DNA of 25,969 nt. Source: a virus. Lineage: Duplodnaviria; Heunggongvirae; Uroviricota; Caudoviricetes. Every line of letters begins with the position of its first letter. The first letter of the stretch is position 1. A program made the position numbers and the translations under genes. Positions 14,484-25,969 of the stretch are shown in pieces. The notes beneath the pieces are model-generated. The model did no database searches. It saw only the letters and a list, made by a program, of their open reading frames with translations, and had not been told where the DNA came from. The stretch is taken from IMG/VR virus record IMGVR_UViG_2585427776_000011, one strand, 5' to 3'.

Positions 14484-14900
14484 CGCGCTTCGCTTGTCTG
14501 CTGCTTCGCCGGGGCATAAAAAATTTATCCCCCGACTCTCCAGCTCCTGTATCAGTCAGATAATTTCACGACGCTTTCCTGCTGATTGCCATCATCGACA
14601 GTCAGACTCTTACGCAATCCCACCGCGTTGACTGCATGTTCTCGCCGTCTCAGTGCGATTTTGACGGCCTTACCTTTCACCCCATCAAATCAAAAGCCCT
14701 CACGTCTTTTTCACGCTCAGCGTGAGAAATACAGCCATTCTGTTGTATCTCTGCGACATCGTTCAGGGAATGCTATTTACCCCCTGAAACGCGGGCTGTT
14801 CCCCCGTCACCTGCGCGCAGAAAAAATGCGTTTTTTTGTGCACGCACGGATCCTTGACGGATCCAGCCACCATGCGGGCCGGAAGGGCAAAAAGTCGTTC
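14484..14900. other. putative cos/packaging region (assigned by synteny only)
   Basis: In P2-like genomes cos lies just beyond the end of Q; I could not find the P2 cohesive-end sequence by eye. Region contains the palindrome CACGCTcAGCGTG (about 14709-14721). Confidence 0.3.
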
Positions 14901-14907
14901 AAAAAAA

Positions 14908-14934
14908 TTGTGCAAATTTGTGCACTATTGTGCA
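14908..14934 (+). promoter_or_regulatory. three helically phased TTGTGCA direct repeats upstream of the accessory operon
   Basis: TTGTGCA at 14908, 14918 and 14928 (10-bp period), with a fourth copy near 14837 and a CGGATCC direct repeat at about 14847-14866. Confidence 0.5.
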
Positions 14935-15013
14935 TTTGTATAGTGAAAAAAATATAGCAGAAAGTATACTTAGCGCCTTGTGGGCTACGTTAACTTTGCA
15001 GGAACATTTGGAA

Positions 15014-16393
15014 ATGAAAAAAATCAATAAAGAAGATTCTAAAAGAACCTTTTTACGTGGATGGTTGCGATTTCTTCGTAGCGTTGAGAGAGCTAAGAAA
15101 AAAAAGCCTGCGCAAGAGAAAAATGGTAGTCTTCGTTTTTCCGATGAAACAACTCCTGTCCAAAACCAAGTCGCTACGTTCATTGAAAATATATCGATTA
15201 TAAAAGAGTATGACTCATCAATTCTTCGTCGTGACGCAGAGAAGATATTAATACCTAAATATTTTGACTTATATGACAATCCAGAGAAATCTCTGCTATT
15301 TATTAGTGCAGCCACAAAATTAATTGCAAGAGGTAAATGGAAATCATATATTTTTGATTACAAGAAAAACAAAAAACACTGTCTTGGTCTTGAGTGTCTA
15401 TTAGGTGTTGCTCTTACAGCAGCAAGGCAAAGTAATATAAATTTCAAAGATACGATGATTCAGATTAATGGTATCTACCCTAAAGATGAACAGTATCTTG
15501 AAATTATCAGGGATGTCGGGCTTGTAAAAGAGATTAGTAATGCTGCACCAGGTAAAGTTCTGGACTCTACTGAAGCATCGAAAAAAGCGAATCCGAAGAA
15601 ACGAATCTTCTCTGCTGATAGTATCGGAAAGGAGAATGCTTCTGCCTTTGCCCATGACAGAAAAAATGTCACTGCTGAAAAATTTACCGCATACATAAAC
15701 GAATGCTTAAATGATCATAATTTAAAACTTGTACATGAGGCAGAAAAGCATTTAACTTCCTGCATGGGGGAACTCCTTGATAATGCGGAGCGGCATTGTG
15801 GGTTAGAGCAACGCCCACGCTGGTATTTGAGAGGTTTTGTTAATAATAACGTACGAAACCCCATATGTGAGTTGGCTGTTTTCAATTTTGGGAAAACTAT
15901 CAGCGAAACTTTTGATAATTTACCTGAGGATCATTTTTCATTAAGTCAACAAGTTAATCCATACATAAATAAGCATATTAAGAAAAAGGGTATGTTTAAG
16001 GAAGGATTAACAACAGTAGCGGCCTTGCAAGGGCGGGTGAGTTGTAAAAACGAGAAAGAAACTGACAGTTCTGGCACCGGAACAATTGAATTATTGAAGT
16101 TATTTCAAGATATGCATGATAATCTTAAAAAAATGGGAAGAGATATTAAAGGTGGGATAAAAATGACTTTAATATCTGGTAGTACTCATATTAACTTTGA
16201 TGGATCATATAAATTAAAGCAAAGGTTGGTTAATGACGAGGAAAGTGACATTTTTACTTACCCTTTTAATGATGTAGGGCTTGAATCTGAACCGGATCGC
16301 AACTATCTTAAGCGTATGAAGGATGCTCGATTTCCTGGAGTTATGATCAATATTCGTTTTCCTCTACCAGAAAACGCCACCCAGCGAACTTGA
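15014..16393 (+). CDS. hypothetical protein with GHKL-type ATPase / anti-sigma-factor serine-kinase-like motif (accessory operon gene 1)
   Basis: ATG 15014 with AGGA RBS; 459 aa, AT-rich codon usage; motif GELLDNAERHCG resembles the N-box (E..NA..H.G) of SpoIIAB/RsbW-type kinases and SSGTGTIELL a G2-like box. Function is inferred, not verified. Confidence 0.75.
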   Translation: MKKINKEDSKRTFLRGWLRFLRSVERAKKKKPAQEKNGSLRFSDETTPVQNQVATFIENISIIKEYDSSILRRDAEKILIPKYFDLYDNPEKSLLFISAATKLIARGKWKSYIFDYKKNKKHCLGLECLLGVALTAARQSNINFKDTMIQINGIYPKDEQYLEIIRDVGLVKEISNAAPGKVLDSTEASKKANPKKRIFSADSIGKENASAFAHDRKNVTAEKFTAYINECLNDHNLKLVHEAEKHLTSCMGELLDNAERHCGLEQRPRWYLRGFVNNNVRNPICELAVFNFGKTISETFDNLPEDHFSLSQQVNPYINKHIKKKGMFKEGLTTVAALQGRVSCKNEKETDSSGTGTIELLKLFQDMHDNLKKMGRDIKGGIKMTLISGSTHINFDGSYKLKQRLVNDEESDIFTYPFNDVGLESEPDRNYLKRMKDARFPGVMINIRFPLPENATQRT

Positions 16394-16403
16394 GGACAGG
16401 TAC

Positions 16404-16748
16404 ATGAAAATGGCTGACATCACCATAGATTTCAATAAGTTAGTAAAAGATAGTAACAAGAAACTTTTTGCTGGACGTTCTAATGGGCGCCAGGCCTATG
16501 ATTACTTTAATATAGGGAAATTTTGCACAACCAGTAATGATAGATTATATCTATTGATCCCCAAGGGAATTGTTGTATCAAGCTCATACTTTCTAGGTAT
16601 GCTTGAAACGGTTTTGCCGAAATTTTCTTCGCCTAGCGAATTTTATAGTCGCACTGTACTTGATGGTCGTGAATATAAAGAAGGTATGCTTTCTGAATTA
16701 GATAGAGCTGTAAGGAGAGGCTTACATAAAAATGTTCCCTTCTTTTAA
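16404..16748 (+). CDS. hypothetical small protein, STAS-like / DUF4325-like (accessory operon gene 2)
   Basis: 114 aa, RBS GAGGA; segment IVVSSSYFLGMLE resembles the serine-containing core of STAS-like domains recalled from memory; sits next to the kinase-like gene. Confidence 0.7.
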   Translation: MKMADITIDFNKLVKDSNKKLFAGRSNGRQAYDYFNIGKFCTTSNDRLYLLIPKGIVVSSSYFLGMLETVLPKFSSPSEFYSRTVLDGREYKEGMLSELDRAVRRGLHKNVPFF

Positions 16749-17541
16749 AAATATTTTTCAAATCAAAATGACAGCGCTGTCTGTCATTTTTTTTATATTC
16801 CCCGCAGCTTGCTCTGTGACAGATTTTTCCAATAAAGAAAACATTGAATGTAATGAGTCACTTTATCCAAACACGCCTTTTTATATTCCCGATTCAGGAC
16901 TTAGTGGTATATCATCACCGTTTTTGTTATCCGGAAACCCGAATGATGGCTTGATGTTTTGTGAAAAGGCAAACGACACCTTTCATAAGTTATCTCTGGC
17001 AAGGGATAACAAAAAAGATTTATTTGCTAATTATTTCAAAGATGTTCCAAATTCCTATGATATATATAATATTGTAAAGGTTCCGGAAAATGGTCCAGAG
17101 TGGATTTCTATTGGCATCTCTTTATTTGCTTTAGTTTCATCCTTTGTTATTCCTTGTGTTCAACATAGAAAAGAACGTAAAGAAGCTATTAATGAAGGGT
17201 ATTGGGTAAGAGAAGTAATTATGCCTAAAATTAATGGGTTGGCATTCGATGTTGTGCAAAGTTTTAAAAACTCCATGGCATTATCAGAAGAGGAGTTTCT
17301 TAGTGTATTCAGTAATACTCTTTTACCAAAACTAGGAGAGTTACGGGATTCATTATATTTGTTTAATAGTTTTCCAGAATTAAATGCAGATATTGAAAAT
17401 CTAGAAAGTATTTGTGACTCCTTGGAGGAAGAAGTTTCCAATCATATAGACTCGCCTAATGAAATAAGAATTTCTGATATATCAATGTTTCATTCCAAAT
17501 TAATACAGAAATTAATTTTACTTCATAAGAAGATAGGTTGA
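16732..17541 (+). CDS. hypothetical membrane protein (accessory operon gene 3)
   Basis: 269 aa; N-terminal hydrophobic signal-like segment MTALSVIFFIFPAAC (lipobox-like Cys) and an internal hydrophobic helix WISIGISLFALVSSFVIPCV; overlaps the end of gene 2. Confidence 0.7.
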   Translation: MFPSFKNIFQIKMTALSVIFFIFPAACSVTDFSNKENIECNESLYPNTPFYIPDSGLSGISSPFLLSGNPNDGLMFCEKANDTFHKLSLARDNKKDLFANYFKDVPNSYDIYNIVKVPENGPEWISIGISLFALVSSFVIPCVQHRKERKEAINEGYWVREVIMPKINGLAFDVVQSFKNSMALSEEEFLSVFSNTLLPKLGELRDSLYLFNSFPELNADIENLESICDSLEEEVSNHIDSPNEIRISDISMFHSKLIQKLILLHKKIG

Positions 17542-22827: not shown

Positions 22828-23178
22828 TTATAAATCAGCCTGTTTAATAAAACTTTGCCCGCGAAGCAGACGATCAACCGTGCGAAGTGCTTCGTATAAT
22901 GTGAAATCCTGCCCGAACTGATTGTCGCCGCAGCTCAATGCAAAAATGCGGTTTCCGGTAAACGGATTGCGTGGGCATTTGTGGACCACAATTCCAGCTT
23001 TCTCAATCAGCCAGGTATGCTCGCCGATTTGTTTTATTGGGTAGCCATCCGGCGTTGCGTGTGTTTCGCTCAGGCTGTAGCGAGAGTTGCTACGTGATGC
23101 ACTGATAGCGAAACGGTTAGCATGGCGTTCCGCACCGTTGCGGAAGCGCTGCTGTGAATAATTGCGCTGTAGTTTCAT
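22828..23178 (-). CDS. hypothetical phage protein
   Basis: 116-aa ORF; first gene of a leftward block downstream of the 23179-23314 intergenic region. Confidence 0.5.
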   Translation of the reverse strand: MKLQRNYSQQRFRNGAERHANRFAISASRSNSRYSLSETHATPDGYPIKQIGEHTWLIEKAGIVVHKCPRNPFTGNRIFALSCGDNQFGQDFTLYEALRTVDRLLRGQSFIKQADL

Positions 23179-23314
23179 ATTAAAACTCTGTACCTTCGGT
23201 AAGGTGTACTCGTGTCACCTTGTATTGATTTGTGGTATTTTTTTGTGTGTCTAGGACTTGGACTGGCCGGTTCAGGTCCTGGCTTATGTTTAATTAAATT
23301 GTTAAGGGGTTTTC

Positions 23315-23506
23315 ATGTCAGAAGATAAAAAAGTTGTTAATTTGTTGAGTGAACTTAGTGCTGCTCTGGATAACATTAACCCTCCCAGGGTAAAAACGAC
23401 GGGTGATAAAGACGCATTAAACGCAGAGATTCATATATTACTGGCGTTAGTAACTGACAAAATTCAGCGTAAATACCCACCTGTCACACAACTGGTTGAT
23501 TTTTAA
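23315..23506 (+). CDS. hypothetical small protein (AT-rich accessory gene)
   Basis: 63-aa ORF with RBS AAGGGG; the only plus-strand gene in the early region; convergent with the next gene. Confidence 0.5.
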   Translation: MSEDKKVVNLLSELSAALDNINPPRVKTTGDKDALNAEIHILLALVTDKIQRKYPPVTQLVDF

Positions 23507-23512
23507 TTTGAT

Positions 23513-23935
23513 TTATGCCGGGCTGCTCCCGGCATCTTCTAGCTGCCATAATGTCTCGTCACCTGATAGAGCAAAACGAAATGAGTGAAGTATATCCTCC
23601 CGAGAGAAGCTCACGGCTACAGCTGCGGGAAAGTCAAATATAATCCCACCTTCATTTTTAAAACGATTACGCAATTGATAGGCTATCGGTTTGATTTGTG
23701 CAGGAAGAGTATCTATATCTCTTCCATTGACAACAGAATCTTTGTTTTCAAGTACTGATTTAGCGATTAGATATAGATGCCAGTAACTGGTTACAATTGT
23801 TACTCCTGTGATGTGTCGTAAATTAATTGCAATTCGTCCGTTATTATGTTTTTCCGCAAGGTATTTCAGGTTATCAATTAATGGTTGGTCATTTTTTGAA
23901 ATAGTTATTGTGAAATCTGGCGTGTTTGTTTTCAT
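23513..23935 (-). CDS. hypothetical protein (AT-rich accessory gene)
   Basis: Start at internal ATG 23935 (MKTNTPDF...) with GAGG RBS, 140 aa; the longer 221-aa ORF would overlap the upstream gene; visibly AT-rich. Confidence 0.55.
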   Translation of the reverse strand: MKTNTPDFTITISKNDQPLIDNLKYLAEKHNNGRIAINLRHITGVTIVTSYWHLYLIAKSVLENKDSVVNGRDIDTLPAQIKPIAYQLRNRFKNEGGIIFDFPAAVAVSFSREDILHSFRFALSGDETLWQLEDAGSSPA

Positions 23936-23939
23936 ACGA

Positions 23940-24461
23940 TTAGTTGCCTCTGTTGTTTCTGAGTTGGTCCAGTTTTGAGCTTCTGCCTGTATAAACTCGC
24001 TTACCGTTAATGGTCTGGCAGTCTTCTTTATTAGCTGGAGAGAACTTCCTTTTCTGGCGGTCATACGTCCAGTAACTTTTCCAGTTGTGCCATTCTGGGG
24101 GCTCGTGCTCTGGTAGCTCATCAGCCAACTTGTCCCACTCTTTGGCGTTAAACCACCATACTCCGTCTGAGTTTTCATCTTCCGGGTTTGTGCGCGTCTT
24201 GTGTCCCGGCATTTGACCGCGATGAATGGCTACGCGCAGTGCAGATTTTGTTAGCCCAATATATGCCGCGCCTTTTTCCAGAGAGCAAAGCCCGGCGATC
24301 GGACCATCCAGCCGTAAAGTCGCTCCTTTTTTGTAGGAACGCTTTTTCTTGTTTTCTTCGTGTTCGTCGTCGTTGGCGGCATCAATGGATCCGCTGAGTG
24401 CGTCACTTTCCTGAAGTGGTTGGTGGTCAGATAACTCTTTATCGGCAATGAAGTCCCGCAT
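23940..24461 (-). CDS. Cox/Apl-like HTH protein, first gene of the early lytic operon (unusually long)
   Basis: Strong RBS AAGAGGA before ATG 24461; segment AAYIGLTKSALRVAIHRGQMPG resembles the Cox HTH as I remember it; 173 aa with acidic N-terminal extension; divergent from C. Confidence 0.55.
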   Translation of the reverse strand: MRDFIADKELSDHQPLQESDALSGSIDAANDDEHEENKKKRSYKKGATLRLDGPIAGLCSLEKGAAYIGLTKSALRVAIHRGQMPGHKTRTNPEDENSDGVWWFNAKEWDKLADELPEHEPPEWHNWKSYWTYDRQKRKFSPANKEDCQTINGKRVYTGRSSKLDQLRNNRGN

Positions 24462-24520: not shown

Positions 24521-24574
24521 AAAGATAACCAAAAGGTTATCTTTGTGCGAGAGGTTAATACTCAAATGGTTATC
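24521..24574. promoter_or_regulatory. operator region between Cox-like gene and C: perfect palindrome plus repeated half-site
   Basis: AAAGATAACC-aaaa-GGTTATCTTT (24521-24544) and another GGTTATCTT at 24565-24573 overlapping the C start. Confidence 0.5.
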
Positions 24575-24907
24575 TTGTCAATAGACTATGCAAAAAAGTT
24601 ACGTCAGATACGTAAGGCGGAAGGGTTAACACAAAAGCAGTTTGCGGATATTACTGGGTTGTCTTTGGCAACCATAAGGAATTACGAATCGGGGCAAAAG
24701 AACGCTAGAGCAAAAATCGTTGAGGCGGTTCTGCAAGTCGATCGCTTTGAAAAATACATGCTGTGGCTAATAAAAGATAAGACGCTACCTGTCGCCGGGC
24801 AGATTGCTCCGGCTCTCTCTCTTGATGGATCTATTCAGTCGGAGGGCGATCAGGTTTCAATCGGTATTACCCAAAAATCACCCCGATCAGGCAGCAATGT
24901 TGGCTGA
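24566..24907 (+). CDS. C: P2 C-type immunity repressor
   Basis: From ATG 24566 (RBS GAGAGG): HTH LTQKQFADITGLSLATIRNYESGQ and ...FEKYMLWL...AGQIAPAL... match the P2 C repressor pattern; the ORF-track start at 24512 is TTG. Confidence 0.88.
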   Translation: MVILSIDYAKKLRQIRKAEGLTQKQFADITGLSLATIRNYESGQKNARAKIVEAVLQVDRFEKYMLWLIKDKTLPVAGQIAPALSLDGSIQSEGDQVSIGITQKSPRSGSNVG

Positions 24908-24976
24908 CTCTACACATTGAGCGAATTACATATCGCAAGGAGTGTTTAGTTAATTTATCCGTTGGAGGGGCTAATC

Positions 24977-25969
24977 ATGTCGATTAAGCAACTCAAAGAC
25001 GGACGTTATCAGGTCGATGTCAGACCGCAGGGGGCGGAAGGAAAGCGGATTCGAAAAATCTTTGCCCTGAAATCAAAGGCTCAGGAGTTTGAGAAGTATG
25101 TGTTACAGAACTTTCATGACAAGCCATGGCAGGCTAAGCCAGCTGATCAGCGGCGATTATCAGAGCTGCTTGATGCGTGGTGGATGCTTGATGGGCGTAA
25201 TCAGGCTTACGGGGATAGCTACAGAGTTAGGCTAGGGAAGGTTGTTCGTGAAATGGGAGATCCTCGCGCCAGTCAGATGACGCGAAAATTTATGCTTGAA
25301 TATCGGTCAGAGAAATTACAGGCCGGATTAATGCCGTCCAGTATTAATCGTGACTTATGCGTACTGTCTACCATGTTCACGGTGCTGATTGAAGCTGAGG
25401 TCTTTCACAACGCGAACCCTGTACGCGGTATACGAAAACTGAAAGTTCAGAACACAGAGATGGCCTTTCTTTCTGATGATGAGATTGAACGGCTTCTTGA
25501 ACGACTGGAGGGTGATGCGCGTCGTGTTGCCATTCTGTGTCTTTCTACTGGTGCCCGATGGAGTGAAGCATCGGAACTACGTGGAGAGCATATCGTTGGC
25601 AACCGGGTGACGTTCTTTAACACCAAAAACGGAAAATCCCGTTCGGTTCCTGTGGCGGATTCGGTCGTGCCTCTGATTAAAACCCGTCGAACGGGGTTAT
25701 TGTATCAGGTTGATTATCTGAAGTTCCGGGAGATTCTTCAGGAGGTGAAACCGGATTTGCCGAAGGGGCAGGCTACGCATGTCATGCGTCATACATTTGC
25801 CACACACTTTATGATGAATGGCGGAAATATTGTTACGTTGCAACGAATCCTGGGGCACGCAACGATTCAGCAAACAATGACGTACGCTCATTTTTCGCCG
25901 GACTTTTTACAGGACGCGATCAACTTTAATCCGCTGGCTGAAAGTGTCCATAAACTGTCCATCGATTAG
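24977..25969 (+). CDS. int: P2-type tyrosine integrase
   Basis: From ATG 24977 (RBS GGAGGGG): MSIKQLKDGRYQVDVRP... with C-terminal catalytic region HVMRHTFATHF...LQRILGH...YAHF; stop at 25967-25969, the window edge. Confidence 0.95.
   Translation: MSIKQLKDGRYQVDVRPQGAEGKRIRKIFALKSKAQEFEKYVLQNFHDKPWQAKPADQRRLSELLDAWWMLDGRNQAYGDSYRVRLGKVVREMGDPRASQMTRKFMLEYRSEKLQAGLMPSSINRDLCVLSTMFTVLIEAEVFHNANPVRGIRKLKVQNTEMAFLSDDEIERLLERLEGDARRVAILCLSTGARWSEASELRGEHIVGNRVTFFNTKNGKSRSVPVADSVVPLIKTRRTGLLYQVDYLKFREILQEVKPDLPKGQATHVMRHTFATHFMMNGGNIVTLQRILGHATIQQTMTYAHFSPDFLQDAINFNPLAESVHKLSID

Follow-up and report, generated by a model that had tools for sequence, protein, structure and literature searches.

A convergent gene pair in the early region of P2-like prophages, with a possible effector and neutraliser role

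What is a short plus-strand gene doing inside an otherwise minus-strand early operon, where it runs head-on into a larger gene of that operon? The question is raised by one end of the virus record IMGVR_UViG_2585427776_000011 (25,969 nucleotides, analysed in full and called here the window), which represents a P88-like (Xuanwuvirus, Peduoviridae) prophage of Escherichia coli; the strains EC958 and UTI89 carry the same prophage beside dmsA. A first interpretation made from the letters alone (hereafter the sequence-only reading) had pointed to a pair of AT-rich genes next to a Cox-like gene and had suggested a horizontally acquired moron. Our analysis shows that the two genes, orf63 and orf140, belong to the known category of phage accessory cassettes and constitute a previously undescribed, narrowly distributed two-gene family, whose members were found together, and in the same convergent layout, in all contexts examined. 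The elements of the pair itself are as follows.

23315-23506, plus strand: orf63, an open reading frame (ORF) with a Shine-Dalgarno (SD) sequence, encoding an acidic protein of 63 amino acids (aa; isoelectric point 5.6), annotated as WP_001287828
23304-23309, plus strand: AAGGGG, the SD sequence of orf63 as read from the sequence, 5 nt from the ATG
23513-23935, minus strand: orf140, an ORF call on the early-operon strand, encoding a 140-aa protein
23515-23535, either strand: stem-loop with 8 bp rich in GC, AUGCCGGG-cugcu-CCCGGCAU, immediately beyond the stop of orf63 and within the last 7 codons of orf140

Two genes paired in every context examined

Both ORFs are as the sequence-only reading described them: they converge, with only the 6 bp of 23507-23512 between their stop codons, and in near-identical NCBI records both are annotated as coding sequences. 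All flanking early genes lie on the minus strand and orf63 is indeed antisense to early transcription, its strand being that of C and int (the lysogenic direction). The claimed AT-richness was open to refutation by composition and held: the GC content of the 762-bp region is 38.3%, as against 50.3% for the whole window and 49.6% for each of the flanking genes (cox and the DUF4761 gene), and GC at third codon positions (GC3) is 0.31 and 0.29 in the pair as against 0.53 and 0.50 in its neighbours. The start codon of orf140 lies 4 nt past the cox stop and is preceded, at a distance of 11 nt, by a GAGG.

Word-seeded searches of 5.8 billion proteins returned only near-identical E. coli copies of either protein. 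An exhaustive HMMER search of 1.84 billion representatives found a 138-aa protein (P0014) that is 33% identical to Orf140 (BLASTP E=1e-16); its gene runs in the direction of the early operon in a Salmonella P2-like prophage, and a gene for 62 aa converges on it, the encoded protein having 42% identity to Orf63 together with NINPPR and KYP motifs. Profile searches and locus look-ups brought the total to about 16 protein clusters, all from Salmonella enterica or E. coli, and to 10 distinct P2-like prophage contexts that differ in integrase, attachment site, repressor, cox type and neighbouring genes. Scans of all fetched loci with hidden Markov models (HMMs) showed an early-strand gene of about 131-149 aa and a convergent homologue of 59-63 aa in 10 of 10 contexts, the stop codons overlapping by 4 bp or standing 0-6 bp apart; the suggestion that the pair might travel together in other prophages was thus borne out. 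The small homologues of the nine Salmonella-type loci (24-42% identity) share with Orf63 the conserved motifs M(N/S)EDEKxxxLL, (N)I(N/S)PPR and KYP, and their SD sequence, at the same spot, is AAAAGGAAC; the Salmonella orf140 copies follow a conserved GAGG SD sequence in the same early operon.

The orf140 family was searched as a profile across the 5.8 billion proteins, and the orf63 family with the window protein and with pattern scans of contig collections only. Within those searches neither family was found without the other, and every context examined had both; two scans of genome contig collections gave no matches and a metagenome scan gave the E. coli allele only. Several apparent exceptions and extensions were set aside. 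Truncated alleles (P0004, P0011 and P0013) were considered as cases of single-gene loss, and the two whose contexts were examined, P0004 and P0011, sit on short, error-rich or end-of-contig Logan assemblies. The HMMER hits P0012, P0016 and P0017 are giant repeat proteins, matched over short stretches through low complexity or repeats.

Since homologues of both ORFs are retained at 21-46% identity and the ratio of nonsynonymous to synonymous substitution rates (dN/dS) spans 0.07-0.37 in the small gene (0.07-0.16 among close relatives) and 0.21-0.31 in the large gene, both are coding genes under purifying selection and not chance ORFs. Variation within E. coli amounts to 4 substitutions across both genes, too few for a selection test. 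Across pairs of loci the identities of the two proteins correlate (r=0.88). The comparison of loci L018 and L034 (such handles denote individual fetched loci), with identities of 87% between the small proteins and 56% between the big ones, reveals recombination inside the pair. Functional coupling of orf63 and orf140 is therefore quite probable, because the genes have stayed together although their surroundings are mosaic and recombination has occurred between them.

What the proteins resemble was approached from several sides. Neither Orf63 nor Orf140 had a match as a single protein in Pfam, NCBIfam, PHROGs or PADLOC; PADLOC returned no family for either, PHROGs only families of unknown function at E>0.04, and Pfam run on all 13 aligned orf140 members sub-threshold noise only, to which the DUF1408 and HTH_micro hits were also assigned. 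Sequence profiles of the PDB did not match either family, nor was any helix-turn-helix (HTH) or CII similarity found when it was looked for in Orf140. Searching 50,697 phage records by tblastn yielded only three near-identical E. coli prophage records, and HMMs of both families found nothing significant in positions 20000-30624 of phage 186 (early region included) or in the early regions of P88 and Shae. The statement that neither protein resembles a P2 gene is upheld by these comparisons, with no match to P2, 186 or P88 and none to conserved core early proteins. A suggested role in superinfection exclusion, anti-defence or as a toxin-antitoxin (TA) pair gained nothing from them, since no known defence, anti-defence, exclusion or TA family was matched. 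An AlphaFold2 model of Orf140 made from the 13-sequence alignment is of moderate quality (predicted local distance difference test score 64, predicted template modelling score 0.58); the predicted fold is an internally duplicated alpha-beta-beta-alpha unit, a repeat also seen by BLASTP, for which no known relatives were found. No study of the two genes came up in the literature, whether it was searched by WP accession or by topic.

An accessory block and the putative promoter of orf63

The setting of the pair is given by the following features, the last two of which precede orf63.

24962-25969, plus strand: int, at the right end of the window
24566-24907, plus strand: C repressor gene (HTH_3)
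23940-24461, minus strand: cox-like gene, 173 aa (PF10743, E=1.9e-7; phrog_23196, E=1e-116), first gene of the early operon and directly upstream of orf140
22828-23178, minus strand: DUF4761 gene (PF15958, E=1e-69), the next early gene and the start of the backbone common to P88
23256-23943, no strand: block cleanly deleted in E. coli PRO_A-1504-6M-A, from the alignment and the annotation of L004, with removal of the leader hairpin, orf63, orf140 and the cox stop
23231-23241, plus strand: TGTGGTATTTT, putative extended -10 element of orf63 (TG at 23233-34, hexamer TATTTT at 23236-41), 84 nt ahead of the start codon
23251-23282, plus strand: leader hairpin of orf63, 14 pairs, made plus-strand-specific by G.U pairs

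The PF10743 match confirms the earlier identification of the neighbour as Cox-like. Beyond the DUF4761 gene, further minus-strand early genes extend as far as gpA. In a megablast comparison of phage records, P88, P884B11, PhiR44_2, phage 520873 and Shae_phiSM share the DUF4761 side with the window and homology ends at about 23148-23195. The block is missing from all five (P884B11 being, like the window, a Xuanwuvirus), and cox there adjoins the DUF4761 gene or nearly so; in P88 the two are 37 bp apart with no block between them. Just three phage records have the block (98% identity). Among complete E. coli genomes it is present in 272 of 5,426 (about 5%), with one chromosomal copy each and at least 99% identity in 254; the carriers include UTI89 and the pandemic sequence type 131 (ST131) reference strains EC958 and JJ1886.

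The strain PRO_A-1504-6M-A keeps the same int, C and cox. Its deletion is secondary, because the native C-terminus of the window Cox matches that of the homologous Cox in L030, and it marks the limits of a dispensable unit: the block can be lost as a whole. As a side effect, the loss of 688 bp lengthens Cox by 12 codons, from 173 to 185 aa (L004 2537-3094).

Morons are independently transcribed accessory genes inserted between core genes, as known from HK97 and lambda and, in P2, from tin, old and fun(Z). The block is like them in being an insertion, patchily present at the same site among close relatives such as P88, in its AT-rich, deviant composition (GC3 about 0.30, as against about 0.52 in the flanking genes), in being dispensable, and in that orf63 has a putative promoter and a 3' hairpin. 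It is unlike them in that this layout applies to orf63 only: orf140 forms part of the early operon, starting 4 nt past the end of cox and having no separate promoter, and the two genes form a fixed convergent pair and not a single unit of promoter, gene and terminator. Thus the proposal of an acquired moron stands for the accessory status, the composition and orf63, and fails for orf140. The block also lies after cox, outside the classical gpA-gpQ or tail hotspots; it falls within the int-gpA interval.

The GC hairpin at the junction of the genes does exist, as had been noticed. It is not intergenic, being inside the end of orf140, and it is not a terminator shared by the two genes: it folds with -13.7 kcal/mol on the plus and -15.1 kcal/mol on the minus strand, and since no U-run or T-run follows on either strand it is not a canonical intrinsic terminator. 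It may act as a weak or partial terminator, or as a 3' stabiliser.

Upstream of orf63, TGTGGTATTTT resembles an extended -10 (TGnTATnTT) and is the sole match to TGTGNTAYNTT on either strand of the window. In the 10 loci (about 110 kb) this pattern occurs 15 times, always (15 of 15) on the anti-early strand with an ATG 75-84 nt downstream, and nowhere else; each anti-early-strand gene of these regions has a copy, 10 of the copies preceding an orf63 homologue and 5 a second leftward gene that is unrelated to it (103/108 aa, 49+166 aa or 168 aa). A generic sigma-70 scan called no promoter at TGTGGTATTTT; from the pattern and placement of the motif we infer that it is the promoter of orf63. The hairpin that follows folds with -21.9 kcal/mol as plus-strand RNA and -7.8 kcal/mol as minus-strand RNA, was flagged as terminator-like on the plus strand, and is found at the same position in all nine Salmonella-type loci, that is, in the small-gene leaders of all 10 loci. 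It also follows the motif ahead of the second gene of L005, the only second-gene leader read. An Rfam scan of 22-25 kb gave no match. Because the stability of the hairpin is strand-asymmetric, it points to selection on the plus-strand transcript and not on a DNA palindrome or on the early mRNA. The motif and leader offer a simple sequence handle on all lysogen-direction genes hidden in the early operons of these prophages.

The second leftward genes belong to a further convergent arrangement, seen at L005 7493-7886, L036 6382-6775, L040 6401-6803, L042 5517-6244 and L044 5562-6144. An early-strand gene of 225-260 aa is met there by a leftward gene of one of the sizes given above, which TGTGnTAYnTT precedes at -75 to -82. 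The rightward gene of this arrangement in L036/L037 bears an orf140-family N-terminal domain. The second convergent pairs of the Salmonella loci had no Pfam or PADLOC match.

Possible roles of the pair

The timing of orf140 would depend on the repressor C. In the C-cox intergenic region, 24521-24575 contains a perfect palindrome, AAAGATAACC-n4-GGTTATCTTT; a third half-site, GGTTATCT, overlaps the C start, and no exact copy occurs elsewhere in the window. The C repressor of this immunity type probably uses them as its operators. A search for such GGTTATCT repeats near the orf63 promoter found none, as they are confined to the C-cox intergenic region. We place orf140 in the early operon because its start is only 4 nt after the cox stop, and the operon, orf140 included, is presumably repressed by C at these sites.

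The reading that we favour, at a probability of about one in three, is that Orf63 is a neutraliser (immunity protein) of an early effector, Orf140, and that the two are reciprocally expressed parts of a coupled cassette of P2-like (Peduoviridae) prophages. Being the gene after cox in the early lytic operon that C represses, orf140 would be expressed on infection or induction only, whereas orf63, from its own promoter and in the same direction as C and int, would be expressible in the lysogen. Since there is no strong terminator between the convergent genes, early transcription would continue antisense through orf63 and its promoter and would shut orf63 off by collision and antisense pairing. 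Orf140 would then act either on the host or in favour of the lytic cycle, and Orf63 would protect lysogens from leaky early expression until the onset of the lytic programme turns it off. Reciprocal expression is suggested by the convergent geometry. The two products would interact physically, and the part of neutraliser is given to Orf63 because of the relative size of the proteins, the acidity of Orf63 and a similar size asymmetry in the second convergent pairs. In favour of the reading as a whole we count the strict pairing and its survival of recombination, the purifying selection on both genes, the place of orf140 in the early operon, the conserved motif, the strand asymmetry of the leader hairpin, the lack of operator-like GGTTATCT repeats at the orf63 promoter, and the joint loss of both genes in PRO_A-1504-6M-A with no harm to the lysogen. 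Were it true, the pair would represent a compact new regulatory design for P2-like phages and a new host- or phage-directed activity.

Several observations weigh against it. In the transposon-directed insertion-site sequencing (TraDIS) study of EC958, EC958_1050 is a plus-strand coding sequence between EC958_1049 (DUF4761) and EC958_1051 (int), for which Table S1 of Phan et al. 2013 (PMC3789825) lists 19 insertion sites, 247 reads and an index of 0.11, and which it scores as non-essential (is.essential = N); it had no growth or serum phenotype, and orf140, cox and C were unannotated in that study (PMC3789825). By its coordinate offset (121,420, the same as for its neighbours) EC958_1050 is orf63. 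Insertions in orf63 are thus tolerated in the lysogen, so that any leak of Orf140 there is not lethal, with the caveat that orf140 is expected to be repressed in that state. In addition, no homology or fold match in the searched databases points to an activity of either protein; L036/L037 and L044 contain additional paralogues of the orf140 family but no second small gene; and the co-occurrence covers only 10 contexts from two host genera. Of the two genes the small one also evolves the more slowly, contrary to what is usual for an antitoxin.

Known phage systems offer partial parallels. In SieB-Esc of P22 and lambda, and in the immI region of P22 (mnt, arc-ant and the sar antisense RNA), lysogenic and lytic functions likewise antagonise each other, and opposing or antisense transcription contributes to setting the state. 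On the other hand, Esc is an in-frame product of sieB, not of a separate convergent gene as here, and no similarity in sequence or fold was found; the products of immI are an antirepressor and repressors that bind DNA, and neither Orf63 nor Orf140 has a detectable DNA-binding domain.

A broader proposal, which we consider doubtful, is that the pair is the founding example of a hitherto unrecognised class of lytic/lysogenic toggle cassettes, each made of an early effector gene and a convergent, stop-overlapping partner, the partner being driven by a shared element of TGTGnTAYnTT and a 5' hairpin. In these prophages at least three leftward gene families without relation to one another have that element in front of them. 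If such a class exists, a small lysogen-state regulon would be interleaved with the early lytic operon and silenced by it.

The polarity of the pair could be the reverse, which we think unlikely. Orf63 would then be a lysogen conversion factor (exclusion of, or abortive action against, related phages or satellites) that also hinders the phage's own lytic growth, with Orf140 as an escape or self-immunity protein that is made early and neutralises it on induction, a logic like that of SieB/Esc of P22. This would suit the moron-like layout of orf63 (putative own promoter, leader and 3' hairpin), the presence of the same promoter and leader at unrelated leftward genes, and the dispensability of orf63 in the lysogen by TraDIS; the extra orf140 paralogues without small genes would be better explained as a broadened antidote repertoire than as extra toxins. 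The location speaks for it as well: a 2026 survey (PMC13586616) makes int-gpA a minor defence hotspot of P2-like prophages, with 8% of their recognisable systems; the major hotspot is gpA-gpQ, outside which the block lies. However, a soluble acidic protein of 63 aa lacking a sensor or enzymatic domain is an improbable abortive effector, factors that exclude at entry require no self-antidote, and neither protein matched a defence or anti-defence model of PADLOC or PHROGs.

We are equally sceptical of functional independence, in which orf140 would be an ordinary non-essential early gene and orf63 an unrelated moron, inherited together as one small recombination cassette. Early regions are indeed highly mosaic and made of short cassettes, some of whose starts share sequence (AACGAGGTACAAAATGAAA...); the other leftward genes with the same motif follow unrelated rightward genes, and the interaction of the two products is hypothetical. 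Against this stand the co-occurrence in 10 of 10 contexts although the neighbours differ on both sides, the pairing kept despite recombination between the genes, and the failure to find either family alone in the searches described above. Should the genes be independent and phenotypically silent, they would be ordinary prophage dark matter. The features of interest of the pair are the invariant convergent, stop-overlapping design, the promoter-leader element common to all leftward genes of these early regions, and the presence in about 5% of complete E. coli genomes, ST131 reference strains among them.

It is quite unlikely that the role lies mainly in RNA or transcription, the orf63 promoter damping cox-distal early transcription or reading back to C and int like pE of phage 186, with the peptide secondary. 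The genes do converge, their 3' ends overlapping without a canonical terminator, the motif of the promoter recurs across the loci, and the annotation of phage 186 shows a leftward pE within the early operon; as with pR/pL and the CII-dependent pE of 186, a leftward promoter (putative here) lies within or against the early lytic operon, and transcriptional interference is expected. Yet the sequence of Orf63 is strongly constrained, with dN/dS of 0.07-0.16 among close relatives, so that the peptide matters. Moreover, pE of 186 lies between apl and cII and needs CII, whereas the motif here is downstream of the second early gene, orf140, and away from the junction of cox and orf140; Orf140 resembles neither an HTH protein nor CII, there is no CII-like activator, and what the leftward transcript would encode is a conserved protein with no relation to CI or Int.

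A classical type II TA addiction module with a constitutive toxin and a labile antitoxin is very improbable: the pair has in common with such modules a small acidic protein invariably linked to a larger partner on a mobile unit in a prophage, but the genes converge in all 10 loci with adjoining or overlapping stops instead of forming an autoregulated operon, the candidate antitoxin gene can be inactivated in EC958 beside its would-be toxin gene and is non-essential in the lysogen, orf140 is under a repressed lytic (early) promoter, and no TA family of Pfam, NCBIfam or PADLOC shows similarity.

Neighbouring genes and further loci

The window Cox is unusually long at 173 aa, its Cox domain occupying residues 58-129 after an acidic N-terminal extension; the Cox proteins of P88 and Shae_phiSM have 141 and 95 aa, respectively.

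The orf63/orf140 block is not the AT-richest part of the window. That is 14581-17541 (14.6-17.5 kb), where the GC content over 762 bp goes down to 0.32 (32%) near 16781, and which probably corresponds to the "first" accessory module implied by the sequence-only reading. Its ORFs, all on the plus strand, encode 491 aa (14918-16393), 114 aa (16404-16748) and 269 aa (16732-17541), with no Pfam or PADLOC match at E<=1e-3; the block is a candidate defence system. Lying upstream of gpA, it would be the classical tin/old defence hotspot of P2 if its neighbours are packaging genes.

Directly upstream of the orf140 homologue, L005 (5877-5990) has a conserved sequence that recurs at the equivalent site in L018, L030, L031, L034 and L036, and that looks like a cassette-boundary recombination sequence. 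The L005 copy encodes the end of a short hydrophobic peptide (...AATIKFIITYLF*). In L005 and L018 the initiation region and first codons (AACGAGGTACAAAATGAAA.TCACC..GAAGAT) are common to the orf140 homologue and the next early gene.

Farther along the early operon, some Salmonella relatives have an 85-aa ParE_like gene (PF24732; L031 6924-7181 and L042 7293-7550), which is absent from the window. It directly follows a gene of 146/147 aa, with which it may form a co-directional TA-like pair.

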